A stretch of DNA of 64,000 bases, from positions 32,798,001 through 32,862,000 of the forward strand of contig OX638158.1 of assembly GCA_951804945.1 (NCBI GenBank). The letters are read 5' to 3'. The notes below the pieces were generated by a model, which saw nothing but the letters and a program-made list of their open reading frames with translations, searched no databases and was not told the origin of the DNA. The DNA comes from Podarcis cretensis. Taxonomy: Eukaryota. This document shows positions 7,606 through 60,199 of the stretch, one piece after another. The stretch's first letter is position 1. Each line of letters opens with the position of its first letter. The translations under genes and the position numbers were made by a program.

Positions 7606-10078
7606 GGGTTTCCAGTTCCGATCTGCCTTAATGGAGGCAGCCCCCACAACATTACAGGGATTGAAGGCGGGGAAAAACAAGAGTGGTAGAGGGTAAATCA
7701 TTCTTGGAAATTCCTCCCCGGAAAGGGAGGAACGGGATTAACTTGCAGTCCGTCTGGGTACCTGGCTCTCACTCCAGCATGGAAAGCAGAGGGCAGGGAG
7801 GCACTGAGTGTAAAAGCAATTCGTCTGGTGAAAACACTCCCACGTCCCCATTAAGAAGCAGAGGTTCTTCTGCTAACTGGATTTTTAATTGGCTTTAAAG
7901 TCAGGCACGCTCTGAGAGAAGGTGTTGTCATCAGAACTGCGGAATTACCCAGCTGCATTGATCTGAGATTTGGAACTGAGAAAGAGATTTTATTTGGTGT
8001 GGGCGGTAGATAGCAGAGAGGGAAGCCTCCAGTTTCCTGTTTACTTTGAGTTTCCTTATTAATGATTCGGCAACCCTCTCCAGACATAAAATTTTAAAGA
8101 TACAAAATGAAGTTGAACTGCAGTATGAAATAAAACTAGTGATTAAAAGAACAGTTAGCTGTGTGTGGTTTAAAGAGATGGGGACAGCTCTAATACTGGA
8201 ATTGATTATCTTGGAAAATTAGAGTGGATACCATCTCTACCTCCCCCCCCCCTTAAAAACAACAGATAAGAGATACAACAAGTGGACTTTGGCCAAAATG
8301 CAGTTGTAAAGATGAAAGGAATTTGGAGCCATGGAGACTCTGATGGTCATTAACTGAAATGAAAGTACTCCAAGATCCCCTGCAGCGGAAGCTGGATCCC
8401 TCTTTTGGGCTGTAAAAATTTCTAGACGGCGATTGAGTAGTGAGAAAGAGTGGACTGTTGGATTATGTTATTGTCCAGAAACACCAAGCAAGATGAAAGC
8501 ACGATGGGAGGGAACTAATGAGATATTTTGAGAATTCCCCAGGAATAGCCCCACCCCAGCTATGCTGAGAGATCACAGCAATTGGAGGAATTTCAAGAAT
8601 GGGACAGCAGATAAAGGCTAAGGACTTTATAATTGGACATATTCAGACTGACACATGCAGAGAAAAGGAAAATAATAAGAGTACCTCATTTGAAATCCTA
8701 TAGAAAGTTAGATAAGGTAATAAGATGAATAGTAATCTCTAAAAATGCAGCTGTTATCTTAAGGATTAATATTCCAACTGAAATGTAATTAGATGTTAAT
8801 AAAAATATGAACTGCAGCAATACAAGAACTGGATAAAAAACGGCCTTATGAGGAGACAAAAAATTCATTCACCAGTTGGCTACAATACCAGCAGGTGAAT
8901 GATCTGTTAAAAGAAGATAAAAAAAATATAGGTTTCGAAGACAAAAAATCAAAATTTAACATAGAGGTTGTAGAAGGTAAGAACAAAACACTGTCTAGAA
9001 TTTATAACATATTATTAGAGTGGCATACAAAAGATGAGTAGGTGAAGGAGGCAATGATTAAATGGGCAACCGACTTTGGTTATAATATTGATTTTGAAAG
9101 GTGGTTGGAACTGTGGAACAGCAATATAAAGTTTACGGCGTGTATGGCATTGAGAGAGAATATCTGGAAGATGTTGTATAGATGGTATCACACGCTGGTG
9201 AAACTGGCCAAAATGTACAGATTAAGGAATAGGAAATGTTGGAAATGTGGCGAGGTGGAGGGTGATCTTTATCATATGTGGTGGCTATGCAATAAGGTGA
9301 AAGGCTTCTGGGAATCAATCTACAATGAACTTAAAAAAATATTTAAATATACTTTCCCGAAAAGACCTGAAGCCTTTTTGTTGGGAATGATCGGTAATGA
9401 AATCAAAAAAGAAGATAAGACGATATTCCTTTATGCCACCACGTCAGCAAGAAATCGGAAACCATACCCAATATAAATGATTGGCAATGTAAGATGGCAA
9501 ATTATGCCGAGCTGGATAGGCTAACAGGTCGAATACGAGACCAAGATGAACAGAAATTCCAGAAAAATTGGAGTAAATATTGGAATTATATTGGAATAAA
9601 TTGATAAAGTGAATTGGCGGGGCTAGAACAATTCTATCAGTAAATAAATTTAAGATGTAAGATCAAAAATCAAATACGTAATGGAGGAAGATATATGATA
9701 CTTACCAAAAGGGTGGAGGGGAGTCTAAGGCTCGGTAGAGCTCAAAATATCATGATTGTATCCTTTATATACTGTTATAATGTTCTTTTTCTTTGTTTTT
9801 TCTTTTTTTGTGTGTATTGGCCTTTTTTTGTTTTTTTTGTGTGTGTATTGTTCTTCTTTTGTTTCTGCATAACTTTAATAAAAATGTAATTGCAAAAAAA
9901 AAAAAAGAACTGGATAAAAAACACTGATCAAGGAGCGTGAGAAACCACTTTGATTAAATTGGATAAATTTGGAAATAATTGGAATTATCTTGATATTAAT
10001 TGAAATCTGTATAACTGGCAAAACTGTGGTAATATTGAGTAAATATTGGAAAATTAATAAAAATTCATTATAAAAAAA
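7606..10078 (+). mobile_element. Older, degenerate L1-like element hosting the 8842-9904 insertion
   Basis: 5' end resembles that of the 57531 element, followed by an A-rich body and an AATAAA/A-tail near 10056-10078. No clear TSD; boundaries approximate. Confidence 0.45.
8842..9904 (+). mobile_element. 5'-truncated L1-clade LINE (ORF2 C-terminal Cys-rich region, 3'UTR, poly-A)
   Basis: KMLYRWYHT...CWKCGEVEGDLYHMWWLC zinc-knuckle; AATAAA and poly-A; 18-bp TSD aagaactggataaaaaac (8824-8841 and 9905-9922). Confidence 0.9.
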
Positions 10079-56355: not shown

Positions 56356-57530
56356 ATGTCAAGTTTAGAATTTTTAGGTTGTGGTATGTAGAAATGTAGT
56401 ACAGGCAGCGACCATATTTAGGCATTTCCAGTTGACGTGTGACCGCGCACATGCTCATCACCACTGATGTAGTAGTGGCCAGGAAATGGAGTGGAGGCAG
56501 AACAGGTTTAAGCATGCTCCGCTGATACCCATAGGGGCCAAAAACGCAATCCCCGCACAAACGGCAGGTTGCTTGTATATGTGAACAGTGAACTCTGCAA
56601 TCGTCACGGAAGAAGATTAATAAATTTGAAGAGGGAGCAGCGAAGAAGAGACAAAGAGGCATATTTACAACTTGTGTGCAAAAGGGAGGATTATTATACA
56701 ATGATTTGACAAAACTGCATTCACCCCCTTATATCACCAGGCAAGTGGACATTAAAGAGCTTGAGCTCTTCTCCCCTTCAGACACCTGATCTCAAATCTC
56801 AGCTTAACAACCACTGGAAATTCATTTTCAGTCAAGCTCAGGGTCACTAGGGATGAGTCCTGAGAATCTGTTCTGAATGGCAGGCCTCAGCCTGGAAATC
56901 TGTAATGCAAGAATAAAGTACATCTGATCAGATAGATAGGGCTTCCATTGGTTACATTTTTATGAGTCGTGACTGGTCCCATTAGGGCTAATGGGGCACA
57001 GTCTCATCAGCCGTCCTCAGGCAGCCCCCACGAACCTGGCTTCCTACTTACAATCAGTCCAGGAAATGGCCTGGCTGACAGCTTCCTCCTCCTTAGTCTC
57101 AGCTTGGCCCTGTACAACTCAGCAGGGAAGAGGACGGGGCAAAACTAGAATGGCTCTGGCACTACCTACTGTCAGCCTCCATGCCTCTGGCCTACCAGTC
57201 CAGAAGATCACTGCCCTCTGCTGCAGATACGTGTTCCAGCCTCACAATAACCTTGCAACAGGGGTTGCACTCAGACAGGGGTGCCAACTTGAATAAAATA
57301 TTGGGAGGGCCCAGGAAAGCCCCACCCTGCATAGTCCATCACAAGAGGCAGTGCACACACATCATTTGAATGCCAATGCCTAGCTTCTCAGCTGAGCCAG
57401 GATCTGAACTTGAGTAGCAATCACTTAACCATTACTCCACATACACCTGACAAAGCAGGCACCGGCCCATAAAAAAACCACAATGCATTTGTTAGCCTTG
57501 ACAGGTGCCCAAAATGTCTCTCTTCTTTTC

Positions 57531-59895
57531 GGACTTCTGGGTTGGCGCCTCCGGTAATGGCGGAATTCCTCTGATCAGGAGGAATTTGCTTCGTGGAAAT
57601 CCGGGTCTGGCTGCCACGGCAAAGGCGGAGACCCACTAAAAATCACAGGCGGGTGAAGCCTGTGAACGTGGGATTCGGCTGGCACCTTTTGCGCCTCCCC
57701 TACTCGCGGGGAAACCCGGTTTCGGGGATCCGGAGCGACGTGGGGTGAGTGGCGCGGTGCTTCAAATTGATTGCTTTTTCCACGGAGCGAAGCTGCATAG
57801 CTGTTGCCGGAGAGCGCTGACTTTTTCCTGTGGACAATTTGATCTTAAAGCAACTACCCATGAGTAGAGTGAATAATTGGATTTTTAAACGTCTTAATTT
57901 GGCACCGAAACGGGGAGGTTCAAAACAGGAAGTCCGCCTTCCCCTTTTGTAAATAGACTGAAGCAGAGGCTGCAAGCTAAAGTCTTGGAAAGTCTACTGT
58001 GAAGGACTAAATTTCCATCAGTAAAAAATATTAAATCCCCCTTGGAAGCAGGAGAAGAGGGGGGAAGTTTTGGATTGTATATGCTTGCAGGAGAGAGTGA
58101 AGGAAGTTAAAATACCACCGCTCCGAACCTGGAAACGGGCTGCTAGTAAGACTGACGTCTTTTGGAATGCTCATTGACCGTGACTAGAACGTGCACTGAC
58201 AGTTAGTTAAATAAGAGAAATACATTGTTTTCAATGTCTCCATCTGCGTTTAAAAAGGAGTAAAAGTAACTGAAAATTGAAACTAACTTTATTGTTTGAA
58301 CTGTGTCTAAAAGGACTAATACAAATAGAAACTGTTTCCCTCTAGAGCAGTGTTTCCCAACCTTGTGCCTCCAGCTGTTTTTGGACTACAATTCCCATCA
58401 TCCCTTGCCACTGGTCTTGCTAGTCAGGGATGATGGGAGTTGTAGTTCAAAAACAGCTGGAGGCACAAGGTTGGGAAACACTGCTCTAGAGGAAGCTTTT
58501 GAAACTGTTACAAGAGCTGATCTGGGGGAATTTCCAGCTGCGAGATAAAAAGCTGTGAGACTTTGGGACTGACCTTGAATCGGTTAAGAATGTTGATAGA
58601 AGAGGCCTTAGCGGTTGCATTAAGTAAGATAAGTAACTCACTGGAACAGCTTAACAAGAAGGTGGATGTGGTAACTACCAAAATTGATAATTTGGGACAA
58701 AAAGTGAACATCAATACAGAAACTATTCAGAAATTGATACAGGAATCTACTTTGACATGGCAAACTGTGGAGAAGGCTAGGGAGAAAGTTGTTGCAGTTG
58801 AACCTAAAGTAACACGGTGAGAGAGAGAGTCCCAGCCTTACAGTTGCAATTTGATGACCATAAGTCGATGCCTTCTACGACTGAATTTAAAGAAAATTAG
58901 ATTTTGAGGATTAGAGCCCTACTGGAGAAGGAGAGTTTGATGGATTTCACCACGCAGGAATTTGCTGATTTTTGGGACTTGGACTTGGGTCAAGAAGAGA
59001 TTAAAATTGTGAGGGCCTTCAGACTTGGAAGAGGAGGGAAAAAAGAGAAGAAGAAAAATAAGAGACTGTTGGAACTACCAGAAGAACCTAGAAGAACAAC
59101 AGTCAATAGTGGAAATTTTGAAAGACGTCCGGAAATATCTTTTGGATTTTGGGTTTAACTACGGAGATTTGGTTGCCCTGTTGAGAAGGAACAAAATCAT
59201 CTCTAGGTGGGAGTTTCCCCGAGATCTACTCTTCAGCCTCAAAGGAAGGAAAATAAAAATAAGATCAGTAGAAGACAAAGTAAAGTGCATGTATAAATAC
59301 AAAGAAGACTTGCAGAAGGGACTTGGAAAAGAGTTAAGAGCATCGGACAGAAGATCACCAGGTTGATGAACTATATGGAATTGGCGGAAATGACTGACAG
59401 AATCTGAGACCAGGGAGAAGAGACGGTGGAAGAAGATTGGAAAAAGTTTAAAGACTATTTATAGAAATATTGTAAAATTGATGAATGTTGGAAAAATGTT
59501 AGAATGAAGTTATATGGCTTTAGTAGAAATGTTATAAGGAATTAAGTATAGATAGATTATTAGAGTATTAGGGAAAAATAAGGTTAGAATATGTCAAGAT
59601 AAATATAGGACAGAAAACAGAGAAAGATGGAAAGGAATTGCTGAAACAATTAACAGAAGTGGAATACAAAAAGGGAGGTGTGAGGAGGTCGTTGAAACAA
59701 GTAAACGAAAGATATGACATTGAAATTGTATGATGTATGTTAAATTGTTTTTGTTTTGTTTTGTTTAGCTTATTGTGTTAGTGTTGTGTAATGTTTTTAT
59801 ATTGTATTGTATTGTCTTTTTTTGCCTTTTTTCTTTTTTCTTTCCTTTTTTGTAGTGTTTAAAAGTAATAAATATTATTTTAAAAAAACAAAAAC
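57531..59895 (+). mobile_element. L1-derived non-autonomous element: 5'UTR, degenerate ORF1, last ~40 codons of ORF2, 3'UTR, A-tail
   Basis: 20-bp TSD aaaatgtctctcttcttttc (57511-57530 and 59896-59915). CpG-rich 5' end. Coiled-coil (58563-58820) and ORF1-like pieces (RAFRLGR, RWEFP). The ORF2 tail is homologous to the L1 at about 9490. AATAAA and A-rich tail present. Confidence 0.85.
58348..58483. mobile_element. Palindromic hAT-Charlie-type MITE inserted in the L1-derived element
   Basis: Long inverted arms cagtgtttcccaaccttgtgcctccagctg; perfect 8-bp TSD ctctagag. Confidence 0.92.
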
Positions 59896-60199
59896 AAAAT
59901 GTCTCTCTTCTTTTCATTGCTCACTATGGTTCCTCCCAGCGTTTCCATGCTGGGCACAAAAGCCAAGCGCAGGCTTCGGAGGCTGCTTCCAGGCTGGTCT
60001 GGGAGCCGGCAAGGCACCAGATTTGGAACATTTCTATTTAGGCAAATAGGTTGCAGGATGAATGACACACATTTGCCCTCAGAAATCAGGCCAGTAATGG
60101 CAGGGGTGTCTTTCTGCATCAGACTCTGTTCAAGTAGACTGCAGAGGTTCTCCAGAATTAAAGCAGCTGGTGATCTGGACTGAGAAACGGGCATCCTGG

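Follow-up and report, generated by a model that had tools for sequence, protein, structure and literature searches.

A shortened, ORF2-less family of L1 elements in a lizard genome and the fate of its ORF1 reading frame

RESULTS

Anatomy of the window copy

The window analysed here, a 64,000-nucleotide stretch of lizard DNA, contains a retroelement whose features are collected in Table 1. A first-pass annotation, made from the letters alone, had described it as a 2365-bp unit with a perfect 20-bp target-site duplication (TSD), a CpG-rich 5′ end and an A-tail. The TSD is present and extends to 21 bp at most, the CpG count at the 5′ end rises to 11 in 100 bases (57700–57799), and a short A tail is found together with a poly(A) signal. 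The span 57531–59895 does measure 2,365 bp, but 144 bp of it belong to a later MITE insertion with its 8-bp TSD, so that the element proper is ∼2.22 kb long. The MITE, which we take to be hAT-like, is absent from all 39 sister copies compared; pieces similar to it lie near several other copies of the family.

Directly before position 58590 the first ORF1 ATG of the parent element and about 50 further codons are deleted (an event of –156 nt). The shortened ORF1 that follows encodes 261 aa in intact sister copies and lacks 15 residues of the RRM. In the window copy it is dead, with a stop at 58818–58820 and private indels of –4, –6 and +1. The description of ORF1 as degenerate holds for this broken copy, but it misses that the source lineage, with its frame kept open, had already been stripped of RRM residues and conserved positions. 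The proposed jump into the C-terminus of ORF2 is confirmed: the frame LMNYMELAEMTDRI*DQGEETVEEDWKKFKDYL begins at 59363 and has 13 of 33 residues in common (hand count) with the C-terminus of an L1 at 9494. As also proposed, neither an endonuclease (EN) nor a reverse transcriptase (RT) is found in the unit, and both are present in related full-length L1s. The L1 at 9494 is not the parent and belongs to another, distant family; it is a 5′-truncated copy (∼8810–9910 of the window) with an ORF2 C-terminus, 3′UTR and A tail, apparently flanked by the repeat AGAACTGGATAAAAA.

Table 1. Coordinates of the shortened L1 copy in the window
Feature	Position	Strand	Remarks
5′ target-site duplication, 21 bp	57510..57530	+	exact match to 59895–59915
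L1 5′UTR with GGACTTCTGGGTTGGCGCC start, first 300 bases CpG-rich	57531..58589	+	82–84% identity to parent copies, as measured on sister copy L057
Later MITE insertion, long inverted arms, 8-bp TSD CTCTAGAG	58348..58483	.	palindromic
Shortened ORF1, starting at the parent's internal Met53 and ending with new stop TGA (59364–59366)	58590..59366	+	
Deletion junction CACCAG/GTTGATG	59356..59368	+	an ATG overlapping the stop of ORF1 (TGATG)
Remnant of the last 42 ORF2 codons	59362..59490	+	right end set by length from parent copy L138
L1 3′UTR with AATAAA at 59867, T run, short A tail	59491..59894	+	
3′ target-site duplication	59895..59915	+	exact match to 57510–57530

Copy number and mode of amplification

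Copies sharing the junction are numerous: a 23-base pattern with one mismatch allowed matches the genome 1,771 times, against 0 for the control, and the junction is spanned by all 40 scored hits (3,723 candidates). A 5′-end pattern gives 898 matches, parent copies included. When 40 further loci were drawn from the first 100 junction matches listed, 31 proved to have kept the 5′ end. Among 39 copies fetched, 32 were two-ended (ends called by script), and 29 of these carry a TSD of their own, 9–21 bp long and each different. At ∼2.2 kb per copy, the 1,771 copies would occupy roughly 3–4 Mb of the genome. The window element is one dead copy in a family of ∼1,800 shortened L1s, and the suspicion that it represents a non-autonomous squamate L1 family is borne out: the family is multi-copy and ORF2-less, and it arose within its own lizard L1 lineage.

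Contigs bridge the junction in three of four sequencing runs from two organisms, and the larger RRM deletion described below is likewise found in three of the four; these runs are only presumed to be RNA and constitute no evidence of transcription. Some copies are shorter still, two of them (L069 and L037; 1,027 and 1,780 bp) with both ends and TSDs. Locus L033, which looked like a longer form with 214 ORF2 codons, is actually an old short copy into whose junction a 5′-truncated L1 of a sister family has precisely inserted, with an 18-bp TSD (L070:2884–3984; G000 C2, ∼2,288,900–2,290,000).

The autonomous parent

Named relatives of the protein come from Podarcis, and one of them matches the genome at up to 91%, which makes a lacertid host likely. 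The same search led to the parent, full-length L1s with an ORF1 of 374–396 aa followed by ORF2. A pattern in the ORF1 tail of these elements, of the same length as the junction pattern, matches 82 times, so that there is about 1 parent copy per 20 short ones, a count that omits other L1 families. The 67 window-type copies used for subfamily analysis form one clade (support 1.0) nested among the parent copies. The first full-length relatives that we found (the L077 family, 72–80%) were rejected as the parent. EN and RT domains are recognized by Pfam in the autonomous sister family.

The parent begins with GACTTCCGG...ATGGCG and has a 5′UTR of ∼950 bases, a length of ∼6.2 kb and almost no spacer. 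In its 5′ motif, long 5′UTR, length (∼6.4 kb for the clade) and short spacer it resembles clade 1 of the lizard L1s described by Boissinot and Sookdeo (2016, PMC5381506); in the accessible text that paper covers autonomous families, and neither HAL1 nor nonautonomous appears as a word. In the genome searched (G000), many L1 hits of the full-length type fall ∼200 kb or less from a contig end, as if in duplicated subtelomeric segments. In Podarcis muralis, two TRIM39-like gene models (P0002, P0003) end in an L1 ORF1 RRM-CTD, which may be a gene-model artefact or an exonised L1.

The junction and the origin of the deletion

Relative to the parent, the short element lacks ∼3.75 kb (3,745–3,774 nt when measured against three uninterrupted parent copies), a stretch that opens at ORF1 codon 342 and leaves only the final 42 codons of ORF2. 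The 5′ break falls in the parent sequence TCACCAG/ATAGAGG and the 3′ break, 42 codons before the end of ORF2, in GAATGGCAGATGAA/GTTGATGG. In parent copies such as L138 the ORF1 tail holds a tandem repeat, RASDRRSP twice, and the deletion breaks directly after its first unit. In the short element CACCAG/GTTGA supplies the last ORF1 codons and the stop. A second, sister short form has six extra bases at the junction (CACCAG-GATGAAGTTG, 46 matches), and both forms close ORF1 as Ser/Leu-Pro-Gly-stop.

The first-pass annotation had noted that CACCAG/GTTG looks like an exon–exon junction and suggested that ORF2 had been spliced out, which would make the family descend from a spliced L1 RNA, as SpIREs do. 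The CAG/GT reading of the junction and the AG dinucleotides near the 3′ break speak for this, and the exact founder copy was not found. The parent sequence speaks against it. The removed piece begins with AT or AC after CACCAG in 33 of 33 parent-type copies, never with GT (20 of the copies came from a pattern that favours AT/AC and 13 from an unbiased protein search), and no placement of the cuts yields GT...AG, so a splice origin is not supported. Neither of the nearby AGs, taken as an acceptor, yields the GG seen in both junction forms. Moreover, the SpIREs reported so far are deletions of the 5′UTR or of 5′UTR and ORF1, and mostly dead ends (PMC5860796). We regard a spliced founder as very improbable.

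Judged by its sequence, the element owes the loss of its ORF1 end and of almost the whole of ORF2 to a deletion that did not involve splicing. The breaks are flanked by CAGAT and AG microhomologies, and both junction forms have one G more than a clean microhomology join predicts. The deletion could have come from a template jump during reverse transcription, or from a 5′-truncated L1 landing in ORF1, near the CAGAT/AG microhomology. A single origin of the two junction forms is rejected (26-row tree, p-AU 4e-5), and the tails of the window-type founders match an early-form copy best in 3 of 3 cases, by a small margin. The two forms may go back to two separate hits on one hotspot, or to a single event with later recombination. 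A search for an intermediate junction of the tested form returned none.

Subfamilies and stepwise loss of ORF1

Subfamilies were defined on 67 of 80 window-type loci, after 11 truncated or further deleted loci, one rearranged locus and one duplicate had been dropped; the early-form set comprised 24 of 30 loci. The window-type copies form a nested series, B1 to B4. B1 lacks the 15 residues of the RRM, and most of its copies have a stop at codon 10. B2, the subfamily of the window copy, and the later ones have lost the 156 nt that include the first ATG, so that ORF1 starts at Met53; B2 additionally lacks two heptads. In B3 and B4 the loss from the RRM amounts to 42 residues, and B4 misses another 14 in the CTD. 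One branch of the early form shows parallel losses of 7, 14 and 34 residues. B2 is a minority, found at 0 of 40 sampled loci.

The reading frame is kept open

Stops are rarer among ORF1 states shared between copies than among private ones (1 of 224 versus 16 of 251, P = 3e-4), although the test is not significant in subsets (P = 0.12 and 0.07) and one shared stop does exist, at codon 295 in four copies. The indels point in the same direction. The 18 shared ORF1 indel rows consist of 12 subfamily markers, 5 recurring slips and 1 alignment mirror of a deletion already counted. All 12 markers are in frame; of the slips, which occur at a GA run or at homopolymers, 1 of 5 is, which makes 13 of 17 with slips included. 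Private ORF1 indels are in frame in 18 of 70 cases, and 6 of the 42 shared indels outside ORF1, a few of which may be quirks of the reference copy, are multiples of three. The contrast between ORF1 and the regions outside it is significant at P = 5e-8, or 9e-6 with slips. An open frame of at least 205 aa is present in at least 22 of the 67 copies. The ORF2 remnant has a shared stop and shared frameshifts in subfamilies and is of variable length, and the ATG overlapping the ORF1 stop therefore marks no kept protein.

The encoded protein decays

The frame is identified as ORF1 by profile. Pfam gave no Transposase_22 or other L1 ORF1 match on the short or the parent-type ORF1 and one sub-threshold L1 ORF1 hit on 17 relatives; a single-sequence PDB search with ORF1 returned nothing, and a 7-row profile returned chance coiled-coil hits only. 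A profile built from the ORF1 region of 48 relatives does match human ORF1p (2YKO, E = 7.6e-13), and Atlas places it with Transposase_22 clusters at a score of 0.92, 32% of the members bearing the family. AF2 models of ORF1 are poor (mean pLDDT 46 and 54).

In an alignment with the human protein, the 15 deleted residues fall on IIVRFTKVEMKEKML in the RRM, and the Arg that aligns with human RR261–262 is Gly in 23 of 23 B2 copies. Of 12 near-invariant positions 3 are changed or deleted in B2 and 11 in B4; most parent copies keep all of them. Measured to the parent, the distances (codon positions 1+2/position 3) are 0.15/0.19 for B2, 0.28/0.28 for B3 and 0.44/0.45 for B4; the autonomous sister family gives 0.16 and 0.51. 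The ratio of nonsynonymous to synonymous changes (N/S), shared versus private, is 0.72 versus 1.89 in autonomous copies, 1.69 versus 2.92 in B1+B2 (P = 0.02) and 2.14 versus 2.15 in B3+B4. Some weak amino-acid constraint thus seems to be left in the earlier subfamilies, that of the window copy included, and in the later ones B3 and B4 none appears detectable. Testing ORF1 region by region gave no significant constraint anywhere; the first heptads show a non-significant trend (N/S 1.42 versus 2.55, P = 0.12), and the coiled-coil deletions of 21 nt preserve the heptad register. NG86 dN/dS was set aside as a test of selection, given that private changes also gave 0.3–0.6.

The substitution clock

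When a parent copy serves as outgroup, 54–58 unique changes are seen in B4 copies at third codon positions against 7–15 in B1, 92–104 against 18–28 in the 5′UTR and 26–30 against 1–4 in the 3′ part. When the outgroup is the distant one, B4 exceeds at third positions by only 1.4–3.6-fold, often without significance. Fixed ORF1 changes in B2 are strand-biased (C>T 0.21 versus G>A 0.03 per site, P = 2e-5), while singleton changes are nearly symmetric (C>T 0.010 versus G>A 0.007). The bias would fit a gain of fixed changes over repeated cycles of copying. If many new copies become sources in their turn, this could account for the 4- to 8-fold excess in rate that third codon positions and the 5′UTR show.

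DISCUSSION

Our preferred reading, to which we give a probability of roughly 0.6, is that of a shortened L1 family, founded by a non-spliced deletion, that likely borrows both L1 proteins and whose frame is likely kept open only for the translation of its RNA. By established L1 biology such an element needs ORF2p in trans. Since core residues of the RRM and a conserved Arg are lost, we infer helpers as the source of both proteins and translation of the RNA as the target of selection; that ORF1 is readable end to end though its RNA-binding core is partly lost suggests that being translated matters more than the protein. Pol II RNAs have been reported to require ORF1p as well (PMC2666806). The L1 promoter would drive a pol II RNA of the short element, ribosomes would have to reach the stop at the junction for this RNA to be spared nonsense-mediated decay, and translation up to that point may keep the RNA where the helper proteins are made. 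An L1 of the L077 family is inserted in an old short copy, so a possible helper was active until late. Against this reading, an ORF1-only RNA in HeLa cells depended on an ORF1p able to bind RNA, and mobilisation of an EGFP RNA was rare; the driver, as described in the passages cited, supplied ORF2p only, with no ORF1p in trans (10.1101/2024.05.03.592410). A staged version of the preferred reading, in which the lineage passed from a half-L1 to a SINE-like parasite, its junk ORF serving as a runway for ribosomes and an open frame being the sole coding demand, seems to us an even bet.

The shortened protein might instead still work through its coiled coil, the nascent chain co-assembling with helper ORF1p and so tethering its own mRNA to the helper particle; frame and heptad register would then matter, and RRM and CTD would not. 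The shared 21-nt deletions of the coiled coil remove whole heptads, the lowest shared N/S falls in residues 53–110, AF2 predicts one long helix at 3–70, and a truncated human ORF1p is reported to act in trans via its N-terminus and coiled coil (PMC5605252). However, the N/S trend does not reach significance, B4 has 27 of the 51 residues there changed, 12 of them radically, and a tether leaves unexplained why stops and frameshifts are absent from the RRM/CTD part downstream of the coil. This we consider unlikely, though the most credible of the alternatives. Less credible by a good measure is a classic HAL1, whose own ORF1p would still be an RNA chaperone needed in cis and merely evolve fast. 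Mammalian HAL1 is seen in this way in the literature (PMC3627910, PMC2241872, as far as the sections consulted go), the kept frame and the long open copies speak for it, and it may apply to the early form A1, in which the RRM is whole. Deletion of the RRM core and loss of the conserved Arg are hard to reconcile with it, as are the drop of K+R in RRM and CTD from 37 to 12 in B4 and the fact that conserved positions change as often as others. Finally, the copies might have multiplied as DNA, by segmental duplication or after one post-insertion deletion, with the frame open by chance. One duplicated pair, L033/L034, is indeed present among the loci, but multiplication as DNA is refuted by TSDs that differ, like the flanks, from copy to copy, and chance is opposed by the frame tests (P = 3e-4 to 5e-8); we assign this a near-negligible probability.

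Half-L1 (HAL1) elements are known in mammals, including rat RNHAL1 and guinea-pig HAL1 (PMC5753468, PMC5786205, PMC2241872, PMC3627910). The lizard element works like a HAL1 and is no SpIRE. Like HAL1, it descends from an autonomous L1, consists of 5′UTR and ORF1 without EN and RT, is multi-copy, was amplified by target-primed reverse transcription (TPRT), as TSDs and A tail indicate, and must borrow ORF2p; retention of coding capacity over time and repeated origin, in so far as the cited descriptions go, are further likenesses. It differs in that a whole ORF1p, RRM and CTD, under purifying selection is not found: the lizard ORF1 is cut at both ends, its RRM core was lost in the source lineage, and the later subfamilies show no amino-acid constraint, whereas mammalian HAL1 ORF1p is held, in the passages cited, to be needed in cis. 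It also differs in its squamate host and in keeping the parent's own ORF2 tail and 3′UTR. SpIREs (Larson et al. 2018, PMC5860796) are similar as internally deleted L1s with both ends and a TSD. Unlike them, going by the parts of that study cited here, the lizard element has no splice signals, has ORF2 removed and the promoter kept, and went on amplifying through the nested subfamilies B1 to B4 in place of a one-round dead end. HeT-A and Ag-Sponge (PMC5786205) are likewise ORF1-only derivatives of a LINE, bipartite and non-autonomous, but they belong to other LINE clades and their proteins are regarded as functional. The papers listed in the literature searches included no description of a squamate HAL1.

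With this family, ORF1-only L1 parasites are described from a lizard as well as from mammals, and a single genome holds the complete series leading from the parent to the derived forms. By what route pol II RNAs such as those of HAL1, SVA and processed pseudogenes gain access to ORF2p, and whether it must lead via the ribosome, is called open in the passages cited from a preprint (10.1101/2024.05.03.592410). The natural variants of the family separate an open frame from a working protein, which makes the question of ribosome passage directly testable. If the runway reading is true, the family would be natural evidence that a pol II RNA gains the L1 machinery through being translated and not through ORF1p in cis, and the fast, strand-biased clock of the family would be a record of successive retrotransposition cycles. 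With the promoter region kept in most copies, the family may also be a notable source of L1 promoters in the genome.
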